DNA of 64,000 bases from Deltaproteobacteria bacterium (GTDB taxonomy: Bacteria > Desulfobacterota > WTBG01 > CAIYCZ01 > CAIRTM01), in the NCBI GenBank assembly GCA_016875025.1, contig VGSH01000001.1, positions 30,174 through 94,173 of the forward strand, given 5' to 3'. Position 1 is the stretch's first letter. Each line of letters begins with the position of its first letter. The notes beneath the pieces were generated by a model. It made no database searches and was not told the DNA's origin. It saw only the letters and a list, made by a program, of their open reading frames with translations. This document shows, one piece after another, positions 1,187 through 62,035 of the stretch. The translations under genes were made by a program, and so were the position numbers.

Positions 1187-1204
1187 AGTGCAGATGTATC
1201 AGAT

Positions 1205-1480
1205 TTGTCCAAAATAAATTATTGGATCGCTGCTGAAGGCCCTCTGGCCGGGGCCGTGCCGTCCCATCCGGCAAAGAAGACCTCATTTCATGTTCGGCCC
1301 GTGTGCCGGAATATTTCAAACGGGCCAGGCACGCCCCCGCGATTGTTGTATACAGCAGTGAGCCCGGGCCGTGTATACAATGAATTTTACAGGACGTGCC
1401 GTTGCATCGGCAGTGCAAAAACTGCCGGATGGGACGGCACGGCCCCGGCCAGAGGGCCTGTTCTAAATTATTTTGGACAC
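1205..1480 (+). repeat. MITE-like palindromic intergenic element, copy A
   Basis: Terminal inverted repeats GTCCAAAATAAATTAT / ATAATTTATTTTGGAC. Internal 36-bp perfect inverted arms at 1238-1273 and 1423-1458. A near-identical inverted copy lies at 49594-49877, with further copies at 33641-33925 and 61993-62035. The six-frame ORF across it is judged spurious. Confidence 0.8.
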
Positions 1481-1592
1481 TACTGCAGATGTATATACAC
1501 GTGAACGTTGATCCTTCTGTTCGGGGTCGGCAGCGAAATCGAGTGTTTTACACTACCGTTTTCGATGCATCGTATACTGTCGGAGAACGTCG

Positions 1593-26905: not shown

Positions 26906-27259
26906 GACGTTTTTTTTCCTATAAAGCATACCGCGGGTTTGTTCGGGTCCTGCTGCCATTCGTGTGGGGCCGGTTCCGGCATACGTTTCATGGAGCATCA
27001 GGCGCGGGTCCTGTTTTTTTGTAAACATACATAACCCGGGTAAGGTTTGTCAATCGGAAATACACAGCAGGAACTGTTTGCAAACTTAATTTTTAGTGTT
27101 AAAATCCAATCCGTTTCTCTGATAAGCAGTCTTGTTGAATCAGCAGTGTCCAAGACAATGTAAACAGGCCCGGCCGGCAGGGCTCACCACGCTGCTCCGG
27201 TAATCTATATTAGTCAGATCTGCTATTGAATAATTATTTTTAGAAAGGTCGATGCTCTC

Positions 27260-28476: not shown

Positions 28477-30969
<2,493 letters not shown>

Positions 30970-31032
30970 CCCGGTCCGTATCCTGCCGTTTTTGCTGCTG
31001 TTCAGGTGTGCGGGAACCGGAATGCTCGGCCC

Positions 31033-33615
31033 TTATGCCTGTATAATCGTCAACTCTTCGGCGCCGTTTCGGTGATCGACCCGCACCCGGTCGTTTTCTT
31101 TAAAGGTTCCCTCAAGAATTTTAAGCGCCAGCGGATCCTGAATGTAGCGCTGGATGGCGCGCTTCATGGGCCGGGCTCCGTAGACGGGGTCGAAGCCGTG
31201 GCTGACGATAAAGTCAAGCGCGGCCGCGCTTACCTCCAGATCAAGCCGCCTGTCGGCCAGACGCTTCGTGAGCAGTTCAAGTTGCAGCTCAACGATCCGC
31301 CGGAGCTCTCCGATCTCGAGACTGTTGAACAGCACAACTTCGTCAATACGGTTTAAAAATTCAGGCTTCAGCGTGGCGCGCAGTATTTCCATGACGCGCT
31401 GTTCGCGCTCAGCTCCGCGGCAATCAAGCATTGCCTGGCTGCCGAGGTTGGACGTCATGATGATGATCGCGTTTTTAAAGTCAACGGTGCGGCCCTGGCC
31501 GTCGGTCAGGCGGCCGTCATCGAGAATCTGCAGCAGGATATTGAAAACATCCGGGTGTGCTTTTTCAAATTCGTCGAACAGGATGACGGCATAGGGCCTG
31601 CGCCGGATCTGTTCGGTCAGATACCCGCCCTCGTCATAGCCGACATAGCCCGGGGGCGCGCCGATCAGGCGTGCGACTGAATGTTTTTCCATGTACTCGG
31701 ACATGTCGATCCGGATCATCGAGTGTTCGTCGTCGAAGAGAAACTGGGCCAGCGCACGCGCAAGTTCGGTTTTGCCGACACCGGTGGGGCCCATAAAAAT
31801 AAACGATCCAAGCGGGCGGTTGGGGTCCTGCAGGCCGGAGCGCGCCCGGCGAACGGAATTTGCCACGAGTTTGATGGCGCCATCCTGACCGACGACGCGC
31901 CTGCCGATGCGCTCCTCCATGTGAACCAGCTTTTCAAGCTCGCCTTCAAGCATGCGCGCAACCGGTATACCGGTCCATTTGGAAACTATTTCGGCGATGT
32001 CCTCCTCGTCGACTTCTTCTTTCAGCATGCGTGTTTCAGCACCCGCCTCACTGTAGCGCTGGTTGGCCTGTGCAAGCCGGCGCTCGAGCTCGCTCAGGGT
32101 GCCGTAGCGGAGCTGGGCCACTTTTTCAAAGTTACCGGCACGCTCGGCGCGCAGTTCCTCCTGCCGGGCTTCTTCGATCTGCTCCTTGATATGCTGGATG
32201 GACTGGATGGTGTCCTTTTCAGCCTGCCACTGACCGGTGCTGTCTGCGCACTGTTTTTTGAGTGTGTCGATTTCAGCGCTGATACGTTCGAGCCGGTCAC
32301 GTGAAGCCGGGTCTTTTTCTTTTTTGAGAGCTTCCCGCTCGATTTCAGCCTGCATGAGCCGGCGCTGAAGTTCATCGATTTCCGCGGGCAGGCTGTCGAT
32401 CTCCATGCGCAGCGCGGAGGCAGCCTCGTCGATCAGGTCAACCGCCTTGTCGGGCAGGAAGCGGTCGGTTATGTAGCGGTGCGACAGCATAGCCGCAGCT
32501 ACAATGGCAGCATCCTGGATGCGCACCCCGTGATGCAGCTCATAGCGCTCTTTCAGGCCGCGTAGAATAGAAATCGTGTCCTCGACAGTCGGTTCCTTGA
32601 CCAGTACCGGCTGAAAGCGCCGTTCGAGCGCCGCGTCTTTTTCGATATATTTGCGGTATTCATTCAGTGTGGTTGCGCCAATGCAGCGCAGCTCACCGCG
32701 AGCCAGAGCGGGCTTGAGCATATTGGATGCGTCAACTGCGCCTTCGGCCGAGCCGGCGCCGACAACCGTGTGCAGCTCATCTATGAACATGATGATCCGG
32801 CCGTCAGAGGCCTGAACTTCCTTGAGTACCGCTTTAAGGCGGTCTTCAAATTCACCACGGTATTTTGCGCCGGCCAGCAGCGAACCCATATCGAGCGAAA
32901 CAAGGCGTTTATTACGCAGACCCTCAGGGACATCACCATTGATGATACGCCGGGCGAGCCCTTCAACAATCGCTGTTTTGCCGACGCCCGGTTCACCGAT
33001 CAGGACCGGGTTGTTCTTGGTTCGGCGCGACAGAACCTGAATGACGCGCCTGATTTCGCTGTCGCGTCCGATCACCGGGTCAAGCTTGTCGGCGAGCGCC
33101 TGTTCGGTCAGGTCGCGCGCGTACTGCTGCAGGGCCTGATATTTGTTTTCGGGATTCTGGTCGGTAACGCGCTGCGTGCCGCGCAGCGTGCTCATTGCTT
33201 TTAAAATATCGTCCCGGCTGACACCTGCCTGTTTGAGCAGGCGCACGGCCTGTGAGTCGGCGCAGTCGAATATGGCCAGCAGCAGATGCTCAACGCTGAT
33301 GAATTCATCGCTGAGGCGGCGGGCCTCCTGCCAGGCGGCTTCAAGCATTTTCTTCGTGCGTGCCGATATATATACGTCCATGCCGCTGCCGCTGACAGCG
33401 GGCAGGGCCGACAGGGCAGCATCAAGGGCCGACTGGAGGTCTGGCAGATTAACGCCGGCTTTCTGGAGCACTGTTCTGCCGATCGATCCGTCCTGTGAAA
33501 GCACGGCCTGCAGCACGTGCTCGGGTTCAATCTGCTGATGACCCAAACGCGCTGCTGCCTGTTCGGCGGCCGTCAGAACTTCCTGGGTTTTTATGGTACA
33601 TTTATCGGTGCGCAT
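31033..33615 (-). CDS. clpB: ATP-dependent chaperone ClpB
   Basis: Two AAA+ modules ([15 protein letters not shown] and [15 protein letters not shown]), a middle coiled-coil and a Clp N-domain. Start chosen at [11 protein letters not shown] with an AGGAT RBS. Confidence 0.95.
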
Positions 33616-33640
33616 AGTTTTATATCCTGCATTATTTCTT

Positions 33641-33925
33641 TCCAATATACATTACTGGAGCAGCCTGAAAAGCCCTGCCGGCCGGGACGCCTCCGGCGCA
33701 TCCGGCACACAAGAACTCATTGTATAATCGGCCCGTGTGCCGGTATATTTCAAACGGGCCAGGCACGCTGTGCTATTTTTGTCTGCAGCAGCGCGCCCGG
33801 GCCGTGTACCAACTGAAATTTACATGGCGTGCCGTTGCATCGGCAGTGCAACAACTGCCGGATGCGCCGGAGGCGTCCCGGCCGGCAGGGCTTATGCAAA
33901 TTATTTTGGTTAGTACTGATCCTTT
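33641..33925 (+). repeat. MITE-like palindromic element, diverged copy C, in the clpB upstream/leader region
   Basis: The shared core ggcccgtgtgccgg.atatttcaaacgggccaggcacgc is in the same orientation as copy A. The 36-bp arms (33667-33702 and 33851-33886) differ from copy A but remain exactly complementary to each other. The left TIR is degenerate and the right TIR is aaattattttgg. Confidence 0.7.
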
Positions 33926-34131
33926 CTGCTTTCGTGTTTACTTTGCTGGTGCGTGTTTGATATCATGGCGGCTGACCTGATATACAGACCGCCTTTTGTA
34001 TGCATTAAAAACAATAAGTACGCAGCGAAAAAAGTCAACGCTGGAAGTCGGGCACACTGCTTCTGCCGTTTTGCGGCCGGTATCGTGTGCCGGAGCCGTT
34101 GACCGTTGCGGCTTCCCTTGCAGGTGCGACA

Positions 34132-35685
34132 ATGCGTTTAACAATTGTATGTGTGATCCTGTTTGTGATGTGTCCGGCGCCGCACTATGCGAGCGCTTCC
34201 ATAAGTGTAGCGGCCCTGTTACAGCGGGCTGACGCATATTATGCCGGAGGACGCTATCTTGAAGCGCTCAGCCTGTATCGCGATTGCCTGGAGAACGACG
34301 GAACCGCCCGGGAAAAAGCCTCTGCATATTTCGGCCTCGGACTGCTTGTTGAGCGCTATCTTGACGATAGCGAACAGGCACTTGCCAATTATCGACGCCA
34401 CATTGAGCTGGGCGGGGTGCATAGCGATCGGGCTTTGCACTCAAGCGCCCTGATTCTGGCACGCCTGCTGCGGTGCAACGACTCCGCCGCCTGTTACCGG
34501 GAACTGCTGCAGCGCCATCCAGCCTATGTTTTCGAAAACGCTCTCTGGAAAGAGATGGATGCCGGGCCGTACGTCCTTTCTCCTGCAGTCGGGTTGTTTG
34601 ACCCTGCACAGCTGGGAGATCTGCCCGGCATGGTGCGGGTATTGATCGAGGACAGTACCGGCACGGTCGAGGTAAAGGGCGAGGACCTGCTTGTTGTCGG
34701 CTGCGGCGGTGATGACGCATGGTCTTTGCCGCACGGCACGCTGGCGCTGCGGGCCGACAACGACAGCCTGTACCTGAACGATAACCCCTGCGCAACCGGC
34801 GGGGTGACCGTGCAGGGAGCGCGCGATGGCAGCCTGCAGGTGAACGGGAGACCGTACCGCTCATGGCTGAGCGTGCGGGCGGAGAAGGGCAGGGTGCTTG
34901 TCGTCAACCATGTCTGTCTGGAACAGTATCTGTACGGCGTGCTGCCCCGGGAGGTGTATGTGTCGTGGCCTCCGGCGGCCCTGCGGGCACAGGCGGTTGC
35001 CGCCCGCACCTATGCGCTCTATCATATGATACTGCGTCGCGATGACAGCTATGATGTCCTGTCGACCACCTCATCGCAGGCCTATGGGGGGCTGGACCGG
35101 GAGCATGCGGCAACGAATGCGGCAGTTGACGCCACCCGCGGTCTGGTTTTGTTGAACGGGTCGCAGCTCGCATTGACGCTCTATCATGCCAACAGCGGCG
35201 GCGTGGTTGAAGCTGTTGAGGATGTCTGGGGCGCACGGCTGCCGTACCTGCGCCGCGTGCTGGATACGTTCAGCCTTGCGGGCCGCGGGGTTGAGTGGTC
35301 GTGCAGCCTGAGTGAAGATGAGGTGATTGAACGGCTCGAAAGGTTTGGCATTGTATTTCAGTCTCTGGAAAGCATGCAGGTGCTGAAGCGATCCGGCTCC
35401 GGCCGTGTTGAGCAGATCGAGCTGCGGGGCGGCGGCGCAGCGGTGCGGCTCAGCGGGAACAGCCTGCGGCTGATGCTGGGGCCGGGTGTTGTGAAAAGTA
35501 CACGCTTTATTGTTGGCCGTGACGGCGCTGATTTCAGCTTCACCGGAACCGGTTACGGCCATGGGGTCGGTATGAGCCAGTGGGGCGCGCGTGCCATGGC
35601 TGGGTCCGGTTTCGATTATCAGGCCATACTGGCGCATTACTATCCGGGGACGCATCTTGCACCGTGGCGGGTGTCAGGTCGGTGA
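34132..35685 (+). CDS. SpoIID/LytB-domain protein with an N-terminal TPR-like region
   Basis: C-terminal GTGYGHGVGMSQWGARAMA SpoIID signature. Signal peptide MRLTIVCVILFVMCPAPHYASA. Confidence 0.65.
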   Translation: MRLTIVCVILFVMCPAPHYASASISVAALLQRADAYYAGGRYLEALSLYRDCLENDGTAREKASAYFGLGLLVERYLDDSEQALANYRRHIELGGVHSDRALHSSALILARLLRCNDSAACYRELLQRHPAYVFENALWKEMDAGPYVLSPAVGLFDPAQLGDLPGMVRVLIEDSTGTVEVKGEDLLVVGCGGDDAWSLPHGTLALRADNDSLYLNDNPCATGGVTVQGARDGSLQVNGRPYRSWLSVRAEKGRVLVVNHVCLEQYLYGVLPREVYVSWPPAALRAQAVAARTYALYHMILRRDDSYDVLSTTSSQAYGGLDREHAATNAAVDATRGLVLLNGSQLALTLYHANSGGVVEAVEDVWGARLPYLRRVLDTFSLAGRGVEWSCSLSEDEVIERLERFGIVFQSLESMQVLKRSGSGRVEQIELRGGGAAVRLSGNSLRLMLGPGVVKSTRFIVGRDGADFSFTGTGYGHGVGMSQWGARAMAGSGFDYQAILAHYYPGTHLAPWRVSGR

Positions 35686-35837
35686 TCCGTTTCTGCATGT
35701 CAGTCGTGCCGCGCTTCCCGGATGGCACATGCGCTGCCCAATCCTTATCAGCGCTTGCCATTTTCTCGGCCGTACACTATCATGACAGTGAATCGACACA
35801 ATGCTAGCGGGCTTGATTTCTTTGATCACCGGAGAGT

Positions 35838-36641
35838 ATGCTAATGACCGGCATATGCGCTGCAGAAGATTTTTTTGAACCTGTTCATCCCCGGTGGACA
35901 CTGCAGCGTCTTGCCGCTCATCAACAGCTGCACCTGATTGTTGCGCCGCATCCCGATGATGATGTGATTGGTGCCGGCGGAATGATGGCACTGCTCGCCA
36001 GATTACGCCGGCCGGTTGCTGTCGTGTATGTCACCACCGGCGCTCCGGCCGGCCGGCGCAGCGCCGGCATGGCCAGTGCCCGCAGAGCGGAAGCCCTTGA
36101 TGCGCTGCGGGTTGTGCAGGCCCGCGCGGCATTTTTCCTGCCTTTTACCTCAAAAGATGTTCGGGATGAACCGGCACGCGTGAGCTCGGTGCTCCTGCGT
36201 ATTATGAACCGCGTGCAGCCGATGGCCCTTTACCTGCCGTGTCCGTTTGAACAGCACGCGACCCATCAGGCGGTGACGCGCATGACCGTGGAAGCCCTGC
36301 GCCGATGCCGCACAGGCGCGTGCGAGCTGTGGGGCTACAGTGTGTGGAGCGCGCTGCCGTCGTCGCCGTTTGTGCGCAGCGTTGATATTACACGGGTGGC
36401 CCAGCTGAAGCGCGCAGCCATCGAACAGCACAAAAGTCAGGTTTTTTTCAAGGATTATGCAGGCGGCATACTCGGGCTCAACCGCCATGCAGCCGTGTTC
36501 AGCACGATGCAGCCCGACAGAAAAGAAATTCGTTATGCCGAGCAGTTTCTGGATATGCGCATGCTTGTGCTGAACCGCAGGCTGTCGCTGGAGCGGTTTG
36601 CAGCACAGGTGTTTGTGGGCGCCTCCGGGTCTGCAGAATAG
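35838..36641 (+). CDS. PIG-L/LmbE-family deacetylase
   Basis: AHPDDDVIGAGG motif (HPDDE-type zinc site). Confidence 0.7.
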   Translation: MLMTGICAAEDFFEPVHPRWTLQRLAAHQQLHLIVAPHPDDDVIGAGGMMALLARLRRPVAVVYVTTGAPAGRRSAGMASARRAEALDALRVVQARAAFFLPFTSKDVRDEPARVSSVLLRIMNRVQPMALYLPCPFEQHATHQAVTRMTVEALRRCRTGACELWGYSVWSALPSSPFVRSVDITRVAQLKRAAIEQHKSQVFFKDYAGGILGLNRHAAVFSTMQPDRKEIRYAEQFLDMRMLVLNRRLSLERFAAQVFVGASGSAE

Positions 36642-36691
36642 AAACACTGTCCCTGATATGGATGCATTCGGTTGTAGGCTGGAGGAATATC

Positions 36692-38011
36692 ATGGTTGCC
36701 CGTATCGTTCGTTTTCTGAAATATGACATCTGGAACATGCAGCTTGAGCAGATATCAAGAACCAGGGCGTTTTTTCTGAAGTTTGCCCGTGTCGTTGTTC
36801 TCTCGGTGCACGGCTTTGATGAGGATAAGTGCGTGCTGCGGGCATCCGCGCTTACCTTTTACACCACGCTTTCCATTGTGCCGGTTCTGGCCATGGCTTT
36901 CGGTGTGGCCAAGGGGTTCGGGGTTGAGACCCTGCTGGAGCGCCAGCTGCTTGAGCGCATGCAGGGGCATGATGAAATCGCGCAGTATATCATCGGGTTT
37001 TCTTCATCCATGCTGGAGAACACTCGCGGCGGCATGGTTGCAGGAGGAGGTATCGTGCTTTTGTTCTGGGCTGTCATCAAGCTGCTTGGCAACATCGAGT
37101 CCTCGTTCAACGCCATCTGGGGGGTAAAAAAAGGGCGCAGTCTGAGCCGCAAGTGCTGTGATTACCTCTCAGCCATGCTGCTGTGCCCGCTGCTGTTGAT
37201 TATGGCCAGCGGCCTTAATGTGCTGATTTCAAGCCAGGTGCGTGTCATTATTGAGAATCTGCCGCTGCTTGAGATAGTCGGCCCAATGGTTTTCACACTG
37301 CTGCAGTTGCTGCCATACTGTGTGATGTGGGGTCTGTTGACATTTGTGTACATGTTCATGCCCAATACCGGTGTGCGCTTCAGCGCTGCGCTGGCAGGCG
37401 GCATCGTAGCAGGAACCCTGTACCAGGTTGTGCAGCTGGTTTACATCAGTTTCCAAATCGGGGTCGCGCAGTATAATGCGATTTGCGGCGGTTTTGCCGT
37501 GCTGCCGCTTTTTTTGATATGGCTGAACCTGAGCTGGCTGATTGTGCTGCTGGGCGCTGAGATATCATTTGCATTTCAGCATGCCGACACCTATGAATTC
37601 GAGCCCGAGTGCCGCAGCCTGAGTCCGGGGTACCGGCGGCTGATGACGCTCTGGGTCATGCACGCTCTGGTGAAACGCTTTGAGCAGGGTCAACCCGCGA
37701 CCGGGGTGGACGAGATCAGCCGCATGCTGCGCATGCCGGCGCGCCTGGTACAGCAGATTATGTCTGACCTGACTCAGTGTGGCATGGTGGCTGAGGTCAG
37801 TGCCGCTGGAGTGGTCCGTGTCGGCTATCAGCCGGCGCGCGATATTGCCGGTATAACCATTGCTTCAGTTCTTGAAGCGCTTGATGCGTGCGGTGGTTCT
37901 GCTCTGCCGGTTCTCAAAAACGATCAGCTTGTATGCCTTGAGCAGTCGCTCGACCGCTTTATGGCGCTGGTTGCGGGGTCCCCTGATAACAGGGCGCTGG
38001 CCGCCCTGTAG
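36692..38011 (+). CDS. YihY/BrkB-family inner membrane protein with a C-terminal extension
   Basis: Hydrophobic core of about 6 TM segments with YihY-like motifs (FYTTLSIVP...FGVAKGF). About 440 aa. Confidence 0.65.
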   Translation: MVARIVRFLKYDIWNMQLEQISRTRAFFLKFARVVVLSVHGFDEDKCVLRASALTFYTTLSIVPVLAMAFGVAKGFGVETLLERQLLERMQGHDEIAQYIIGFSSSMLENTRGGMVAGGGIVLLFWAVIKLLGNIESSFNAIWGVKKGRSLSRKCCDYLSAMLLCPLLLIMASGLNVLISSQVRVIIENLPLLEIVGPMVFTLLQLLPYCVMWGLLTFVYMFMPNTGVRFSAALAGGIVAGTLYQVVQLVYISFQIGVAQYNAICGGFAVLPLFLIWLNLSWLIVLLGAEISFAFQHADTYEFEPECRSLSPGYRRLMTLWVMHALVKRFEQGQPATGVDEISRMLRMPARLVQQIMSDLTQCGMVAEVSAAGVVRVGYQPARDIAGITIASVLEALDACGGSALPVLKNDQLVCLEQSLDRFMALVAGSPDNRALAAL

Positions 38012-38037
38012 CCGTCGGGCTGTGTGCGCTCTGTGTG

Positions 38038-39678
38038 TTAGCGGCGCATGATGTCGGTCAGGATTTCGACCGCGTGGTCAACAGCATTGTGGATCGGATA
38101 CAGCACGGTGGGGGCGCCGGCCTGCTTGAGCGTCAGGATATCCTCTTCGACCCGGACAACAAATGCGACTTCTGCGCTGCATGAGCGGTTCTGCAGCGCA
38201 TTGAGCAGTCCGAGGTTCGAGGAGATGTCCGGAAACGTGCTTATGATCCAGGAGGTTGATCCCAGGGGCAGCTGGTCGAGAAAGTCGCCGTCGGTGCCGT
38301 CGCCGTAGCGGGCCGAGTGCAGCCCGGCGCCGGTCATGTGCCGGACGGTTTCAGGATCAAAATCAACCCCCAGGGTTGTCAGTCCCGCCTGCTGCAGGCC
38401 CAGAGCCAGACGGCCTCCGTAGCGCCCCAGGCCGAAGACGATGACATCCAGCTGTCCGGCTATTTGTTCCTGCTGATCAATATCGGTTTCGCGGTGCGGC
38501 CTGCGGCGTTCAAATATGCCGAGCCAGGGCGACAGCAGCGCGTAGAGTCTGTGGGAATAGAGAATCATGTAGGTCGACAGGGCAATGGTAACAAGCCCGA
38601 CCAGGGTGGTGAGACTGAGTGTGTCATCGCCGATATGCCCAAGACTGATACCCATGGCGACAAAAATAATTGAAAATTCGCTGATCTGAGCGACAGTCAG
38701 CCCGGCCAGAAATCCGGTGCGTTTGCGGTAGCCCATCCATCCCATAATAGCCATGACGATCAAAGGGTTGCCGATCAGTACAAACAGCGACAGCACCGTG
38801 GCAGGCCACAGCGCGCTGCCAAGTCCGGACAGGTCAAGTTTTGATCCCAGATCGATAAAGAAAAAAAGCAGCAGAAAGTCGCGTATGCCTGAGAGACGGG
38901 CTGAGATTGCATCACGGTAGGCAGTCGAGGCCAGTGAAAATCCGGCCAGAAAGGCCCCGGCTTCCTTTGAGAATCCGCCCCATTCACCAAGCGCTGCCAG
39001 GCTTGTACCCCATGCTATGGCAAAAATCAGCAGCAGTTCCTGGGAGCGCGCGATATGGGCCACCAGTCTCGGCAGCACATAGCGCATCAGGCCGTACAGA
39101 AGCACGGCAGCCGCCGCGACCCGCCCTGCGATGGACAGGATTATGGTAATCGCGCCGGCTTCACCGGTCTGGCCGAATGCGCTCATGGTCATCATGGCCA
39201 GTACAACGGCCAGATCCTGCACGATGAGAAAGCCTACTGCGATACGGCCGTGCAGCGAGTCTATTTCGTATTTGTCCGAGAGCAGCTTGATGATGATAAT
39301 GGTGCTGGAAAAGGTAAGCGCGACAGCAACATACAGGGCTTCGACCGGTCCCCAGCCCAGCAGCATGGTCAGGATGAACCCGAACACGATAGTGAAACCG
39401 AGCTGTCCCAGACCGGTTGCAAGTGCCACCGGTCCGATGTTGCGGATATGGCGCAGATCAAGCTTGAGACCCACGACAAACAGCAGCACGGCAACACCGA
39501 TCTGGGCCAGAAGATTGATCTGGTCGTGCGCCTTGACAAGACCAAGAACGGCCGGCCCGGCAACAAGGCCGACAGCGATATAGGCAATCAGCATCGGCTG
39601 CCGCAGCAGCATGGCCAGGGCACCGGCTGCAGCGCTGACGAGCAGAAGGAACGCAAATTCGCTGAATACTTCATACAT
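38038..39678 (-). CDS. CPA2-family K+/H+ antiporter with a C-terminal RCK/TrkA-N domain (KefB/KefC-like)
   Basis: About 12 TM segments with a Na_H_exchanger signature, followed by the Rossmann motif VIVFGLGRYGGRLA. Confidence 0.8.
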   Translation of the reverse strand: MYEVFSEFAFLLLVSAAAGALAMLLRQPMLIAYIAVGLVAGPAVLGLVKAHDQINLLAQIGVAVLLFVVGLKLDLRHIRNIGPVALATGLGQLGFTIVFGFILTMLLGWGPVEALYVAVALTFSSTIIIIKLLSDKYEIDSLHGRIAVGFLIVQDLAVVLAMMTMSAFGQTGEAGAITIILSIAGRVAAAAVLLYGLMRYVLPRLVAHIARSQELLLIFAIAWGTSLAALGEWGGFSKEAGAFLAGFSLASTAYRDAISARLSGIRDFLLLFFFIDLGSKLDLSGLGSALWPATVLSLFVLIGNPLIVMAIMGWMGYRKRTGFLAGLTVAQISEFSIIFVAMGISLGHIGDDTLSLTTLVGLVTIALSTYMILYSHRLYALLSPWLGIFERRRPHRETDIDQQEQIAGQLDVIVFGLGRYGGRLALGLQQAGLTTLGVDFDPETVRHMTGAGLHSARYGDGTDGDFLDQLPLGSTSWIISTFPDISSNLGLLNALQNRSCSAEVAFVVRVEEDILTLKQAGAPTVLYPIHNAVDHAVEILTDIMRR

Positions 39679-48250: not shown

Positions 48251-49477
48251 ATGAAGCAACTACGATGGAATAGCATGATTACTGTTCTGGCTGTTCTGAC
48301 AGCCATGGGATGCGGCGGCAGCGCCACCATGACGCAGAATATTTCGCCACGACCGACACCGAATGTCAAATTCATTCCTGCTGAAAATACGGTCTATGTG
48401 AGCGGCATCAGGAAGGTTGCCATATTTCCCTTTGCCGATTACTCCCATCAGCAGCGCACAATCCGGCCGGATGCATGGGGCGGCAATATCCGCATACAGG
48501 AGGAAATAGCCGACCATCTTGTTGCTCACGGGCTCACGCTTGCTGTGCAGGAGGATGTTAATACGCTGCTTGTCGATCGTCAGATTATCCGGCCGATTGA
48601 CGATACAATGTACCTTATTCAGGGAACGGCCCCGCCGATCGACACTACGCATGAAGACCAGATTGAGCGGGTTGAGTCGCTTGAGTACGCACTCGCCAAT
48701 CATGTGCATACGGATGTGATGGCGGATGAAATTTTTTCCCTGATGGGTAAACAGAAAAAAAACGATGATAGTAAAAAGTCGGATTCACCTGTTCTGCAGG
48801 GGGCAACTGTCGGCCTGACCAAAGAGATGGTTGTCGAGCTTGCAGACGAGCTTGATGTTGATCTTATTATCCGCGGACGAATTCTGGACTACGGCATTAA
48901 GGAAACCGCCTCGTTGAATCCGTTTACCAGCGGCATCGTAACGGTGGCATTCCATGGTACGCGTGACCTGCTCCTGGGCGGCAAGGGTTCCTATGACTCC
49001 GGTGGTGAAAGAGCGCGCCGCGGAATTGTGCCGTCGGTGTTCGGCGATGCCCGGCGTTTTACGTGGGGCGGCACCGATCCCATCAACTATGAGGCCGACC
49101 TTGATGATATTACGAATATCGCCACCGGAACAGCTGTGGGTGCGGTAATCGGCTCCGGAACCGGCGCACTGATCGGAGCTGGCACGGGGTATATTGTCGG
49201 CCAGCAGCCGGCACGGAACAAGCGTTCGGCTGTTGTACAGGTACGGATGTATGCACAGAACGGTAAGACCGGTGAGGTCATGTGGTCCAACCGTGTTGAA
49301 ATTGAGTTTTCACCTGCGAATAATTTTGATAATACAAATACGCACCCCCGCGTGATGTTTGATAATGCTGTTCGTGAAGGCATCAAATCCCTGATGGATG
49401 GTTTTTTTATTGAAACCGAAGGGGTATTCTCCGCGGCAGAGCAGGAAGTGGTGCCCGTGCAGAAAGAGGGTACCTGA
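48251..49477 (+). CDS. lipoprotein with a C-terminal glycine-zipper segment, unknown function
   Basis: Lipobox LTAMGCGG. ATGTAVGAVIGSGTGALIGAGTGYIVG glycine zipper. Confidence 0.5.
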   Translation: MKQLRWNSMITVLAVLTAMGCGGSATMTQNISPRPTPNVKFIPAENTVYVSGIRKVAIFPFADYSHQQRTIRPDAWGGNIRIQEEIADHLVAHGLTLAVQEDVNTLLVDRQIIRPIDDTMYLIQGTAPPIDTTHEDQIERVESLEYALANHVHTDVMADEIFSLMGKQKKNDDSKKSDSPVLQGATVGLTKEMVVELADELDVDLIIRGRILDYGIKETASLNPFTSGIVTVAFHGTRDLLLGGKGSYDSGGERARRGIVPSVFGDARRFTWGGTDPINYEADLDDITNIATGTAVGAVIGSGTGALIGAGTGYIVGQQPARNKRSAVVQVRMYAQNGKTGEVMWSNRVEIEFSPANNFDNTNTHPRVMFDNAVREGIKSLMDGFFIETEGVFSAAEQEVVPVQKEGT

Positions 49478-49593
49478 CGTTCGGATGCAGGCATTCTTGA
49501 ACTGATCGAAAGCACAGGTGTTACAACCTGTGTTTTTTTGTTATACTTGCCATGTATATGGAGTCATGATTATACTTATTATAATGGAACAGT

Positions 49594-49877
49594 GGTGTCC
49601 AAAATAATTCAGAACAGGCCCTCCGGCCGGGGCCGTGCCGTCCCATCCGGAAGTTTGTGCACTGCCGATGCAACGGCACGTCCTGTAAAATTCATTGTAT
49701 ACACGGCCCAGGCGCACTGCCGTAGACAACAATCGCGGGGGCGTGCCTGGCCCGTTTGAAATATTGCGGCACACGGGCCGAACATGAAATGAGGTCTTCT
49801 TTGCCGGATGGGACGGCACGGCCCCGGACAGAGGGCCTTCAGCAGCGATACAATAATTTATTTTGGACAAATCTGAT
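49594..49877 (-). repeat. MITE-like palindromic element, copy B (inverted relative to copy A)
   Basis: About 95% identical to the reverse complement of 1205-1480, including both TIRs and the 36-bp arms. The ORF across it (49541-49870) mirrors the ORF across copy A, so it is spurious. Confidence 0.8.
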
Positions 49878-49893
49878 AATGGAATAAGCTGCC

Positions 49894-50979
49894 ATGCATA
49901 CAGTAGATGTAGACCTAGGGCTCAGAAGCTATGATATCCATATTGATAATGGTCTGATCGGGCGCGCAGGCACTCTTTTGAGCGCTGCCATGGGCAGAAC
50001 AGCGGCTGTTATCACGAATTCGACCATAGCTCCGCTCTATCTTACCGCCTTGAAAAATTCATTGGCCGCAGCAGGGTTTAAAGTTTTCGAGATCGTTCTT
50101 CCGGATGGCGAGCAGTTTAAAACGCTCGATACCATGCATGTAATCTATGATCAACTGCTCGGATTCGGTCTTGATCGTTCCGGTTTTCTGGTCGCCCTTG
50201 GCGGCGGTGTCGTCGGCGACATGACCGGTTTTGCCGCCGCCACGTTTTTGCGCGGCATTCCGTTTGTTCAGATACCGACCACGCTGCTGGCCCAGGTCGA
50301 CAGCAGCGTGGGTGGGAAAACCGGCGTAAATCTACCGGGCGGTAAAAATATGGTCGGGGCTTTTTATCAACCTAAGGCCGTTATCATTGATCCCCTTGTT
50401 TTACAAACGCTTCCGGAGCGGGAGTTGCGCGCCGGGCTTGCCGAAGTCATCAAATACGGTGTTATCAGCGATCCCGGTTTTTTTGCGTTTCTTGAATCAA
50501 ATCTGAGGGCGATCATGCGCCTTGATACTGCTGCACTTGCGTCCGTTATTGTACGGTGCTGCTCGATCAAGGCCGATATAACCTCCCGGGACGAGCGCGA
50601 GCAGGGCGTGCGTGCCCACCTTAATTTCGGGCATACGCTCGGACATGCAGTTGAGACCCTGACCGGATATGCTGATTTTCTCCACGGTGAGGCGGTCGCG
50701 ATCGGCATGTGCGCGGCCGCGCAGCTGGCACAATCCCTCGGACTGTGCGGATCGGCTGATGTGCATCGGATCGAAGGTTTGGTTGAACGTGCGGGTCTTC
50801 CCGTTGCGGCTCCGCAGTTTCCGGCTGTCGATTATCTGCGCGTTATGCTGAAGGACAAGAAGAAAACAGGTTCAACCGTCAACTTCGTGCTGCCGCACCG
50901 TATCGGTGAGGTTGCCCTGCATCCGGTTTCGCAGGACCGGCTACGTGCGTTTCTGACCGGAAACCTGGCGATGCCTTGA
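49894..50979 (+). CDS. aroB: 3-dehydroquinate synthase
   Basis: GGGVVGDMTGFAAA glycine-rich NAD motif. The metal-binding motifs KADI and HxxGH (HTLGHAVE) are present. Confidence 0.85.
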   Translation: MHTVDVDLGLRSYDIHIDNGLIGRAGTLLSAAMGRTAAVITNSTIAPLYLTALKNSLAAAGFKVFEIVLPDGEQFKTLDTMHVIYDQLLGFGLDRSGFLVALGGGVVGDMTGFAAATFLRGIPFVQIPTTLLAQVDSSVGGKTGVNLPGGKNMVGAFYQPKAVIIDPLVLQTLPERELRAGLAEVIKYGVISDPGFFAFLESNLRAIMRLDTAALASVIVRCCSIKADITSRDEREQGVRAHLNFGHTLGHAVETLTGYADFLHGEAVAIGMCAAAQLAQSLGLCGSADVHRIEGLVERAGLPVAAPQFPAVDYLRVMLKDKKKTGSTVNFVLPHRIGEVALHPVSQDRLRAFLTGNLAMP

Positions 50980-52314
50980 CGGTTTGCGCTCAGGGCGGTC
51001 CTGCTTTGCGCGTCCGCTGACCTGCAGGCACAACGGAATGCAGTCCAGTTTAAAACGTTCCCGCAGTGAGCGCTCAAGATATTTGATATAGGCGGTGGTG
51101 AAAACCCGTGGGTGATTGGTGAACAGCTTGAACACGGGCGGTGCTGTCGAAATCTGTGCTGCGTAGTAGATTTTCGTGCGGCTGTTGCCCAGGCCGGGCG
51201 GCGGATGATGGGCGCATACCTGTTCAATCGCGCGGTTGACTTCAGGCGTCGCGATACGCAGGCTGTAGCGCCGGCCGATGTCAAGAATCATGTCAAGAAT
51301 AGTGCGTACCCGCTGTCCGGTGAGCGCGCTCAGGGCAACGACCGGGGCAAAATCGATAAACGCCAGTTTGGCGCGCACATCCCTGACGAAGTGCTCATAG
51401 GATTTGTCCTTTTTTTCAATCAGGTCCCATTTATTGATCGCCACGATACATGCCCGGTTGCGCTCGTAGATCTGCGCTGCCAGGCGGGCGTCGTAGGTCG
51501 TTACGCCGTCGCGTGCGTCGATCATCAGTATGCACAGCGCCGACCGGCTGATCGATTTGAGCGACATGAGCTCGCAGAAGCGCTCCAGCTTGTAGCCCAG
51601 GCTGCTTTTGCGCCGGATTCCGGCTGTGTCGATAAAGCGGATGGTCTGCCCGTGATAGCGCATGATCGTGTCAACCGGATCGCGGGTGGTGCCGGCCTGT
51701 TCGCTGACCATGAAGCGTTCCTGCCCGACCAGCCTGTTTATCAGCGATGATTTGCCGACATTGGGACGCCCGATTATCGAGCACACAATTTCTTCTCCAT
51801 CCTGTGACCAGGGCGTGCCTTCGGGAATGTGCGCCAGAATTGCCTCGATCAGTTCCGGAATGCCGGTCTTGTGCTTGGCAGAAATTGCATGAATGGTGTC
51901 CACGCCGATCCGGTAAAAGTCGTTTACAGCGTCTTCAATACTGCGGCCTTCAACCTTGTTGACCACATACAGCACGGGCTTGCCGGACTGCTGCAGATGG
52001 CGGGCGATATCAAGATCACTGTGCTGCAGGCCGTCGGTGCCGTCCATGAGAAACAGGATCAGGTCGGCCTCCTCAACGGCAAATACGGCCTGCTCGCGAA
52101 CCAGGCGCGCAAAGTCATCCTCTCCGGCCGGGTCGAACCCTCCGGTGTCAATCAATGTGAAAGCGTGCGAGTCCAGCGTTACTTCCGTATAATTGCGGTC
52201 GCGCGTTACGCCGGCCAGATCGTGGATGATGGCGATATTGCGGCGGGCAATCGTATTAAACAGGGTCGATTTGCCAACATTGGGTCTTCCGATAATGGCG
52301 ACGACAGGGTTCAT
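50941..52314 (-). CDS. der: ribosome-biogenesis GTPase Der (EngA), tandem GTPase domains
   Basis: Two G-domains (GRPNVGKSTLFN and GRPNVGKSSLIN) plus a C-terminal KH-like domain. Confidence 0.9.
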   Translation of the reverse strand: MNPVVAIIGRPNVGKSTLFNTIARRNIAIIHDLAGVTRDRNYTEVTLDSHAFTLIDTGGFDPAGEDDFARLVREQAVFAVEEADLILFLMDGTDGLQHSDLDIARHLQQSGKPVLYVVNKVEGRSIEDAVNDFYRIGVDTIHAISAKHKTGIPELIEAILAHIPEGTPWSQDGEEIVCSIIGRPNVGKSSLINRLVGQERFMVSEQAGTTRDPVDTIMRYHGQTIRFIDTAGIRRKSSLGYKLERFCELMSLKSISRSALCILMIDARDGVTTYDARLAAQIYERNRACIVAINKWDLIEKKDKSYEHFVRDVRAKLAFIDFAPVVALSALTGQRVRTILDMILDIGRRYSLRIATPEVNRAIEQVCAHHPPPGLGNSRTKIYYAAQISTAPPVFKLFTNHPRVFTTAYIKYLERSLRERFKLDCIPLCLQVSGRAKQDRPERKPSRHRQVSGQKRT

Positions 52315-53036
52315 GGCTGAGTGCTCTCCAGAAGTTTCAGGGCCTCACGGGCAGCCTGCTGCTCGGCTGTTTTCTTGTTGCCGCCATGCCCCGTACCGCA
52401 GGGCTGATTATTGATCATGACCCGGACGCCAAAGGATTTATAGTGATCAGGGCCCTGCTCGGAAATAATTTCATACACCGGGGTGTCGTTGAATAATTTC
52501 TGTACCAGTTCCTGCAGGCGGCTTTTATAGTCGCGGCTGTAGCCCCGCCGGCGGGCGGCTTCATCGATCAGCGGTTTGAAATGGTCGCTGATCATGCGGA
52601 ATACGGCATCGTAGCCGCCGTCAAAATATACTGCCGCAGTCAGGGCTTCGTAGGCGTTGGCCAGTATTGACTTCTTCTCACGTCCGCGGTTTTCCTGTTC
52701 GCCGCGGCTCAGGCGCAGGCAGTCGCTCAGGGCGTAACTGCGCGATATGGCAGCCAGGGAGTCGGTGTTGACGATTGAGGCCCGCATTTTTGACAGGCGG
52801 CCCTCAGGGCTGTCCTGGGCCTGTTCCATCAGTATATGGCTGATTACGAGCTCAATGACCGCGTCACCGAGGAATTCAAGGCGCTCATTGCCGCAGTGCT
52901 CTTCGAGCTGCTGCTCATTGGCATATGATTTATGCATCAGCGCCAGCTGCAGCAGGGAAATATCGCGGAATTGATATCCAATGCGCTGCTGAAGTTCATC
53001 CAGGCTGGCGTTTTCAGCCGGAGCTGTTGTATCCAT
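52311..53036 (-). CDS. rnc: ribonuclease III
   Basis: RNase III signature ERLEFLGDAV and a C-terminal dsRBD. 4-nt overlap with der. Confidence 0.9.
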   Translation of the reverse strand: MDTTAPAENASLDELQQRIGYQFRDISLLQLALMHKSYANEQQLEEHCGNERLEFLGDAVIELVISHILMEQAQDSPEGRLSKMRASIVNTDSLAAISRSYALSDCLRLSRGEQENRGREKKSILANAYEALTAAVYFDGGYDAVFRMISDHFKPLIDEAARRRGYSRDYKSRLQELVQKLFNDTPVYEIISEQGPDHYKSFGVRVMINNQPCGTGHGGNKKTAEQQAAREALKLLESTQP

Positions 53037-53274: not shown

Positions 53275-53348
53275 ATCGCTATCGCTATCGGGATCGCAAT
53301 CGAAGTTTTTGGAAAATCCGATCCCGACCCCGATAGCGATAGAGCGCA
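53275..53348. repeat. approximately 25-bp-arm inverted repeat (hairpin) in the rnc upstream / 53449-gene downstream intergenic region
   Basis: cgctatcgctatcgggatcgcaatcg ... cgatcccgaccccgatagcgatagagcg, with a 16-nt loop. On the minus strand the stem is followed by TTTTGG. Confidence 0.5.
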
Positions 53349-53448
53349 GGGCAGGTGCTGCTCTCTTTGCCAAAGGGGGATTGAAAAGCATCCTGCATGC
53401 GGCACTACGACAGCTCTCCGCGGCAGATGGGCCTTTTTCAACAGCCTG

Positions 53449-60302: not shown

Positions 60303-60717
60303 CTTACAAGCCCGTTAATGTCAAAAGACGGCGGACATGTTCCTGCAACGTATCTATCGCAAATTATCAGGTTGTTGAAAAAGTCATTTCAAACAGGCTG
60401 TTCAAAAAGGACCGGACGCAACGCCGCAGATGGGCCTTTTTCAACAGCCGTTATAAGTTATGGGCGGTAGGGGCAGGGTATGCCGTGCCCCTGCTGTATG
60501 CCGCAGTAATGAATGACGCGCACAATGCGGCAGGCAGGCAGGCATTTTTCAAAAGCCTTTTAAATTTCATATACCTGCCGGACACATCTTTCATACTGCA
60601 TGCTTTTTTCTTTGACAGCCGCGAAACCCGGGTCTATAGTCTTCGCAAATCGGCACAACATCAATATATCGTCAAATAACGGACACAAAATATCTATTGG
60701 TAAACAACCGTATTCGT

Positions 60718-61842: not shown

Positions 61843-61992
61843 GGTGCTCGTCAGATTGCTGAACCAGACAGCAGGTTGTAAAAAAAGTCAAATTATACAG
61901 GCAGTTCAAAAATGGCCAGATCTAAGACGCGCTGAACTATGTGGAATGAGGCGTACTTTTGCGTATGACGCAGTGACGAATGATGAGCGCAA

Positions 61993-62035
61993 CGCAGCAG
62001 AGGGCCTGTTCTAAATTATTTTGGACACTACTGAA
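61993..62035 (+). repeat. solo terminal fragment of the MITE-like element (copy D)
   Basis: agggcctgttctaaattattttggacactactg is identical to the right end of copy A (1450-1483). Confidence 0.6.

Follow-up and report, generated by a model that had tools for sequence, protein, structure and literature searches.

A previously undescribed MITE family with a long GC-rich subterminal stem, and an old copy of it in the clpB leader of an uncultured bacterium

Outward promoters are known from MITEs, and RNase III cuts the hairpins that these elements form in co-transcripts (PMC10969869). In general, prokaryotic MITEs favour intergenic targets rich in AT, and their direct repeats decay over time. Among the described systems closest to the element treated here are the Correia elements (CREE/NEMIS) of Neisseria, which are likewise small and non-autonomous, with inverted ends and many intergenic copies often located just upstream of genes. 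They contain sigma-70-like outward promoters, and their inverted-repeat hairpins are cleaved by RNase III in co-transcripts (PMC10969869). The bcr1 element of the Bacillus cereus group is, like the present one, MITE-like, dispersed and roughly 150-300 bp long. Base-pair compensatory changes preserving the double-stranded structure of bcr1 have been reported (PMC3184786). Generic MITEs such as Coxiella QMITE1/2, Nezha and Chunjie are of similar size and share terminal inverted repeats, direct repeats of 7-9 bp and a core, and are predicted to form a very stable hairpin. In QMITE2, direct repeats of 7-9 bp and terminal inverted repeats of 23-29 bp go with a core of 113-145 bp and a predicted fold energy printed as -113.09 (cal/mol as printed) (PMC10969869). 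The ERIC/IRU sequences of enterobacteria are imperfect palindromes in transcribed intergenic regions and can alter mRNA stability through RNase sites (PMC10969869).

The family described here is a previously undescribed 286-bp MITE family, although MITEs as a kind are known, and its sequence is unrelated to generic MITEs in the collections searched. The copy in front of clpB has, like a Correia element, a leader hairpin and a promoter-like site in its gene-facing end, the latter by consensus match. Correia elements, however, measure ~100-200 bp and pair through their termini, whereas here a subterminal stem of 37-38 bp with 79% G+C lies inside separate AT-rich terminal inverted repeats. Going by their description, they are also set apart by a TA target duplication, terminal inverted repeats of ~26 bp and Neisseria as host, compared with a 9-bp target duplication of varied sequence and another host. 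bcr1 has 5-bp direct repeats, in contrast to 9 bp here, and is known to be transcribed; bcr1-like covariation is found here between subfamilies, where it rests on two to three arm types rather than on many diverged copies. Membership in Correia or bcr1 was therefore rejected on the 9-bp duplication, the different architecture and the different host. ERIC shares the imperfect palindrome but is ~127 bp long, occurs in other hosts and is not known to have clear mobility generating target duplications. Membership in the IS200/IS605-derived palindrome-associated elements (PATEs) or the REP-RAYT repeats, which have no terminal inverted repeats, no target duplication and palindromes that are short and subterminal or 20-40 nt long, was likewise rejected, given clear terminal inverted repeats, 9-bp duplications and arms 148 nt apart. 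The two-tier inverted repeats, with AT-rich ends and a separate, perfect GC-rich stem, are unusual among MITEs.

The window, by which we mean the whole 64-kb stretch of DNA that was analysed, contains three full copies (A, B and C) and two partial copies of the element. Copy C (33633..33918, plus strand, 286 nt) is the member of the older subfamily in the 5' leader of clpB; it was delimited by end-to-end alignment with copies A and B and 17 metagenome copies, and its site is empty in relatives. Its left outer end (33633..33669) comprises a degenerate AT-rich terminal inverted repeat and a 13-nt spacer, and is followed by the left arm (33670..33707) of a 38-bp GC-rich stem with 79% G+C. The 148-nt core (33708..33855) is a degenerate palindrome with local hairpins, is ~83% identical to the A-type core and includes the invariant blocks TTTCAAACGGGCCAGGCACG and GTGCCGTTGCATCGGCAGTGCA. 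The right arm (33856..33893) is the exact reverse complement of the left arm, and the right outer end (33894..33918) carries the terminal inverted repeat ..AAATTATTTTGGTTAGTACTG, which in the family reads GGACACTACTG. The arms are complementary at 38 of 38 positions across the 148-nt spacing, and in the alignment of copies the stem ends abruptly, and pairing goes no further. The sequence-only reading had described these arms as perfect over 36 bp and placed the element about 25 bp from the clpB start; the perfect complementarity and the position in the leader held, while the stem measures 38 bp and the distances from the ATG are 17 nt for the element end and 55 nt for the stem. Only four inverted repeats with arms of at least 24 nt lying within 600 nt of each other occur in the window, and three of them are copies of this element.

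The 300-nt region of copy C has a predicted fold of -157.9 kcal/mol, compared with -102.9 +/- 4.9 for shuffled sequences (z = -11.3), and the opposite strand gave a comparable result. Such a strong fold, in the leader of a heat-shock gene, could in itself suggest a native structured RNA gene or a cis-regulatory RNA of clpB (riboswitch, thermometer or terminator) rather than mobile DNA. Rfam 15, however, gave no matches in the window at gathering thresholds, and at permissive thresholds the copy C region yielded noise with E > 2. A thermosensor is excluded because the stem duplex has a predicted energy of -96.9 kcal/mol at 37 C and still -70.4 kcal/mol at 60 C, too stable for an RNA thermometer, and the Shine-Dalgarno sequence (33624-33628) lies 41 nt outside the stem. 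An intrinsic terminator was also rejected: a scan placed none at the stem, the "loop" is 148 nt long, and the U-tract after the stem on the clpB strand has only four residues, so no canonical terminator is present. Clean 9-bp target duplications at many unrelated loci and the empty clpB site in relatives refute a native leader RNA, a reading to which we give almost no credence.

The clpB gene (31033..33615, minus strand, ATG at 33615) encodes a protein of 860 aa with Clp_N, AAA and ClpB_D2-small domains, whose relatives are named ClpB. The divergent gene with TPR and SpoIID domains (34132..35685, plus strand) keeps its synteny with clpB in relatives. The closest ClpB proteins in a large protein collection are 90% and 87% identical; relatives at 87-90% were seen in ENA and JGI metagenome assemblies only. 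No record of the exact window ClpB protein was found, and the best match among 185,579 GTDB species representatives is 65% identical (Thermodesulfobacteriota and Syntrophia-like MAGs). Three loci of relatives (L110, L111 and L112) have the same gene order as the window, namely phosphorylase, clpB and the divergent TPR/SpoIID gene, with an intergenic region of 212 or 119 nt between clpB and the SpoIID gene, compared with 516 nt in the window. When their clpB loci were aligned with the window, a single gap appeared, which coincides with the ends of the element, and the element is absent there. An nhmmer search of 112 loci with a profile of the element gave no copy in these relatives' loci (L110-L112) or in L001-L080. 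The comparison with relatives that the sequence-only reading had proposed thus yielded syntenic leaders, at 87-90% ClpB identity, without the element, and its placement of copy C in the clpB leader was confirmed, the element at 33633-33918 ending 17 nt from the ATG.

The empty site in L110 reads CGACAGGAT-N8-ATG. The leader of the empty site is ...AAAGTAAACACGAATCACGACAGGAT-GCGCAGCT-ATG, whereas that of the window is ...AAAGTAAACACGAAAGCAGAAAGGAT, then the element, then ATGCAGGAT-ATAAAACT-ATG. The clpB-proximal copy of the target duplication (33624..33632), ATCCTGCAT, or ATGCAGGAT on the clpB strand, contains the Shine-Dalgarno sequence AGGAT, 8 nt before the ATG; the distal copy, ATCCTTTCT (33919..33927), matches it at 6 of 9 positions. 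Comparison of the two leaders shows an insertion exactly at the Shine-Dalgarno sequence; AGGAT-N8-ATG was restored beside clpB by the target duplication, so that the translation signals of the gene survived.

Using the core 20-mer TTTCAAACGGGCCAGGCACG as an exact query against metagenome contigs, 29 contigs were recovered: three chance matches inside an unrelated gene, two window loci and 24 further insertion sites. L085 corresponds to window 29673-39142 at 98.6% identity and L091 to window 49256-52860. The 26 real metagenome loci and the window together give 27 distinct insertion sites, and the flanks are unrelated. Contigs nearly identical to the window were noted in the JGI metagenomes Ga0194127 and Ga0209835 and in the Logan run SRR16108671, while Ga0116204 contained further copies of the element and no contig matching the window outside it. 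Ga0194127 and Ga0116204 derive from lake samples. Twenty full copies could be aligned end to end. Nineteen are A-type, differing from their own consensus by 1-4% per region, and copy C is the sole full copy with alternative arms. Copies start with CAGATTTGTCCAAAATAAATTA and finish with TAATTATTTTGGACACTACTG, which form AT-rich terminal inverted repeats outside the GC-rich stem; the 19 A-type copies have CAGATTTGTCCAAAATAA... at one end and ...TTATTTTGGACACTACTG at the other, and the termini CAG..TGTCCAAAATAA are retained from one subfamily to another. Target duplications are 9 bp long and varied in sequence, and among the 19 A-type copies 12 are perfect (9/9) and five match at 8/9. About half of the duplications end in AT beside the CAG end of the element, which suggests a target preference. 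Purine runs resembling a Shine-Dalgarno sequence were seen in some duplications (ATACAGGAG in L089, AGGAT at clpB). All copies seen are intergenic and occur in both orientations, with no orientation bias relative to neighbouring genes. In a crude ORF scan (window and L081-L108), five of the 20 full copies lie within 25 nt of a start codon.

No transposase gene is possible in 286 nt. In the A-type consensus (e.g. window 1200-1485) frames +2 and -1 are free of stops over the 286 nt, but coding capacity was rejected, as these open frames are probably due to chance in a GC-rich palindrome and copies with frame-breaking indels occur. The element is classed as a MITE because it is small and non-coding, with terminal inverted repeats, a target duplication of fixed 9-bp length and many dispersed copies; the empty site in relatives agrees with this. 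The description of the clpB element as a diverged MITE copy was therefore borne out by 27 insertion sites, inverted ends, 9-bp duplications and the empty site. We take the CAG ends and the 9-bp duplication to be reminiscent of the ISAs1 and IS4 groups. No extra pairs of these terminal inverted repeats and no transposase of an autonomous partner were found in the window and the 29 core-scan loci, and the transposition chemistry is for this reason deduced from terminal inverted repeats and target duplications only. The core 20-mer was absent from the 185,579 GTDB representative genomes in an exact search, the two core blocks had no match in IMG/VR viral contigs, and plasmid and phage sequences yielded no blastn match to copy A or copy C.

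Copy A (1200..1485, plus strand), of the young subfamily, is flanked by the perfect duplication CAGATGTAT, and its arms (1237-1273 and 1423-1459) are complementary at 37 of 37 positions. Copy B (49590..49875, minus strand), also young, has the perfect duplication TTCCATTAT and lies 18 nt upstream of the aroB start; its 35-nt arms (49616-49650 and 49804-49838) are ~94% complementary, and the comparison of arms across copies gives it three mismatched positions. Copies A, C and the reverse complement of B can be aligned over their full length. The arm of copies A and B reads AGGCCCTCTGGCCGGGGCCGTGCCGTCCCATCCGGCA and that of copy C AAGCCCTGCCGGCCGGGACGCCTCCGGCGCATCCGGCA; of the two arm strings quoted in the sequence-only reading, the second (gccctgccgg...) belongs to copy C. 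Depending on the alignment, the A and C arms differ by nine substitutions and one indel, or by six substitutions and three indels, and every difference is mirrored in the partner arm, so that the compensation claimed earlier is complete, with arms complementary within each copy (37/37 and 38/38). RNAalifold identified eight pairs changed on both sides between copies.

This covariation had been read as a sign of selection for the long hairpin. Selection at clpB was not supported by the comparison with other C-type sequences, since the covariation is a difference between subfamilies. Mini-C (27141..27222, minus strand), an internally deleted C-type copy of 82 nt, retains both ends and the stem base and has lost the remaining palindrome. 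It is flanked by a 9-bp duplication matched at 7 of 9 positions (ttgttgaat / ctattgaat) and combines the C-specific left-end states AATATA.ATTAC.GGAGCAGC with the C-type stem base AGCCCTGCCGGCCGGG. Almost its entire palindrome was deleted at a CCC microhomology, a loss which shows the long palindrome to be deletion-prone. The metagenome copy L105 is preserved as a right half only, owing to the contig end, and has the C-type stem base, termini of the family type and a third sequence in mid-arm; its flanks do not match the window, which rules it out as an orthologous clpB copy. The C-type arm base CCCTGCCGGCCGGG is common to copy C, mini-C and L105. Over the three arm types, the stem is conserved at its top, CATCCGGCA, and at its base, with GGCCGGG near the base, and varies in between. 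Since the C-type base also occurs in mini-C and L105, the A-type stem base CCCT-CTGGCC is, by this comparison, the derived state, and the mirrored changes arose in lineages of source elements and not at clpB. Copy C is accordingly placed by its arms in an older, rarer subfamily, which is represented in the data by one full copy, the covariation resting on two to three arm types. The second partial copy in the window is a solo A-type right end of 36 nt, CAGAGGGCCTGTTCTAAATTATTTTGGACACTACTG (61998..62033, plus strand), without a left partner.

That solo end sits immediately after a different repeat (61872-62004). A second, unrelated family of short repeats, consisting of CGCGGCAGATGGGCCTTTTTCAACAGCC and its surroundings, occurs in the window at 53419-53446, 60422-60449 and 60530-60557, and also at 61872-62004 and 60365-60425, compared with L089 6651-6783; window sites and metagenome contig are ~80-85% identical. 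A hairpin-like inverted repeat at 53279-53342, with 30-nt arms, a 4-nt loop and 83% complementarity, is made of runs of hexamers resembling GATCGC and GATAGC.

Regeneration of the hairpin by a copying mechanism had also been proposed; as a process acting whenever the element transposes, it is refuted by the young copies. Only two of the 19 have perfect arms, and together they contain 28 uncompensated mismatched positions versus one compensated. Uncompensated variants recur at different loci (stem position 36 in nine copies, position 9 in four and position 11 in three), and three copies with the position-36 variant also share two linked core variants. Because copies at different loci share mismatches, mismatched elements must have transposed and passed the mismatch on. 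The listed mismatches display no strand-consistent G-U pattern and thus no sign of selection at the RNA level. The A-type founder and copy C, on the other hand, both have perfect stems with identical boundaries, despite ~25% divergence in arm sequence. The comparison between subfamilies shows that their founding source elements were under a long-term constraint, either on pairing or on keeping both arms alike. Routine transposition is excluded as its cause because it passes arm mismatches on, and the candidate causes are selection on source elements, rare recopying of one arm, and co-varying binding sites for one protein.

Recopying would take the form of homogenisation of the arms at the DNA level, by hairpin-templated repair, replication template switching or gene conversion between arms, without functional selection. 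In E. coli, template switching is an established route by which quasipalindromes are corrected. Perfect stems in both founder and copy C in spite of their divergence, the sharp stem boundaries past which no pairing occurs, and the deletion of mini-C at the stem base, as of a recombinationally active palindrome, would all agree with such a process. The 28 uncompensated positions against one, and the survival of mismatches through transposition, would make it slow or rare; moreover, a 148-nt spacing of the arms is unfavourable for intramolecular template switching, and no copy was seen with an inverted core, which is sometimes expected from recombination between arms. As an explanation of the stem, homogenisation is in our view unlikely.

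Transposons normally rely on a single transposase to recognise their two ends. The arms may, on this account, be subterminal sites for a transposase or host factor, sites that have to match at both ends and that co-varied with the specificity of autonomous partners, with no hairpin involved. The conserved top (CATCCGGCA) and the GGCCGGG near the base, the variable middle and the existence of three arm types would fit binding sites, as would the transposition of copies with one or two arm mismatches. The termini CAG..TGTCCAAAATAA, however, are conserved across subfamilies, suggesting one transposase, perfect ends of 38 bp are rare in IS elements, and ~235 kb of sequence from the organism contained no autonomous element with these ends. 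We regard co-varying binding sites as a doubtful explanation.

The reading that we prefer, and consider probable, is that copy C belongs to an old MITE subfamily, is fixed and probably immobile, and has a stem that is a trait of the family and did not evolve at clpB. The element would be non-autonomous and moved in trans by a transposase making 9-bp target duplications, and its members share a layout of AT-rich terminal inverted repeats (CAG..TGTCCAAAATAA), a perfect GC-rich subterminal stem of 37-38 bp and a 148-nt core. Arm constraint would have been imposed by selection on source elements, or by rare recopying of one arm from the other. Copy C entered the clpB leader at the Shine-Dalgarno sequence, with the duplication restoring the ribosome-binding site.

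Of interest is also whether copy C itself has been constrained since its insertion. Its ends are eroded: the target duplication matches at 6/9, CAG is lost at the left terminus, which reads TATTTCTTTCCAATATAC... compared with CAGATTTGTCCAAAATAA... in the family by alignment of copies, and the right terminal inverted repeat is unlike the family-wide GGACAC, while the stem is perfect. Six of 37 positions in the left outer end are unique to copy C relative to the A consensus and mini-C. C-specific changes were scored by three-way comparison of the A consensus, copy C and L105, mini-C serving for the left end, and amounted to 12 of 65 positions (18%) in the outer ends versus 7 of 115 (6%) in the core (Fisher p = 0.012). 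If the arms decayed at 6%, the probability of no change in 76 nt would be ~0.009. In L105, at an unrelated locus, the corresponding counts are 4/28 and 6/115 (p = 0.11, not significant), a trend which would point to a property of the whole family rather than to selection at clpB. L085 and L113, the same loci in other samples, are identical to the window across the element, and because L085 is identical no post-insertion change can be scored at the clpB copy.

These data bear on domestication in situ, in which purifying selection would, since insertion, have acted on the stem and core of copy C as a portion of the leader of clpB mRNA. There the 38-bp dsRNA could be processed by RNase III, or could work as an insulator or terminator that detaches clpB from its old leader and hands it over to an element-borne promoter. 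Domestication would account for perfect arms beside decaying ends, that is for 38/38 complementarity despite a 6/9 duplication and a lost CAG, when only two of 19 younger copies keep perfect arms, and for the higher rate of C-specific substitutions outside than in the core (18% versus 6%, p = 0.012, with a probability of ~0.009 for unchanged arms). The four U residues after the stem on the clpB strand and a -35-like TTTTCA specific to copy C also agree with it, and cleavage of MITE hairpins in mRNAs by RNase III is known for Correia elements (PMC10969869). Against it, the arm differences from A were inherited from a C-type source, the outer ends also tend to change faster than the core in L105, the other sample of the locus (L085) is identical across the element, and the counts are small and come from a single locus. 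We hold domestication to be improbable. Copy C is possibly, if weakly, special, and the counts leave room for some local constraint or correction there.

The promoters predicted around the element indicate how clpB may now be expressed. A sigma-70-like candidate for the native clpB promoter, TTGACT-16-TATTGT (34038..34011, minus strand), is conserved in relatives without the element, and the MITE now stands between it and clpB. Invariant columns in the clpB upstream alignment read TTGACTTTT ... CTTA.T.TT.TAA, and two leader blocks upstream of the element are conserved between window and relatives. The candidate native promoter is not replaced; it is shifted ~295 nt further from the gene. The earlier claim that the element occupies the clpB promoter region was not upheld, with the candidate promoter and the conserved blocks lying upstream and the insertion at the Shine-Dalgarno sequence. 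The blocks, at 33929-33969 on the minus strand, are AAAGTAAACACGAA and GCCATGATA.CA.AC, in a flanking leader that has diverged elsewhere, and may take part in native clpB control as an operator or as a leader RNA element.

Within the left end of copy C a promoter-like site, TTTTCA-16-TATATT (33671..33644, minus strand), faces clpB, identified by consensus match only; at the same place the A-type consensus has the poorer CCTTCA-17-TATTTT. Transcription of clpB would thus proceed by one or both of two routes. By the first, the native promoter would be read through the whole element, giving a leader ~295 nt longer with an added duplex of -97 kcal/mol, and the stem would be a good substrate for RNase III in such a transcript. 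By the second, transcription would start at TTTTCA-16-TATATT in the element end, ~22 nt upstream of the start codon. Copy B has the same layout, in which the MITE stands between a native promoter and aroB (3-dehydroquinate synthase), whose start is 18 nt from the element. A strong promoter-like site, TTGCCA-18-TATACT (49547-49576), lies upstream of copy B, and a CGGACA-18-TACAAT (49825-49854) directed at aroB results from two substitutions found in copy B alone, which may compensate for a polar insertion. The promoter-like sites in the element ends are consensus matches picked after the fact, to be taken as leads and not as evidence of function.

The stem might finally be a module selected for its structure and free in its sequence, kept perfect both in source elements and in the clpB copy because the hairpin is used. 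If this were true, the hairpin would serve as dsRNA, for RNase III processing or for insulation that rewires clpB to the element-borne promoter, or as a ssDNA intermediate of mobilisation, and copy C would be a domesticated leader element and not junk. We think there is little chance that the module is of this kind. Co-option of copy C into clpB regulation, as the sequence-only reading had suggested, is a possibility of modest probability.

The current understanding of MITEs is unchanged by these results, which document an undescribed family from an uncultured lineage. Its copies have inserted repeatedly at no more than 25 nt from a start codon, including those of clpB, aroB and others, and translation signals survive because the 9-bp duplication re-creates the ribosome-binding site. 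The family provides a clean natural setting for testing how genes tolerate or exploit a very stable hairpin that separates them from their promoter, and allows the long-term complementarity of inverted arms to be studied. Should the clpB copy turn out to be maintained for a function, the leader of a stress gene would supply a tidy case of MITE domestication.
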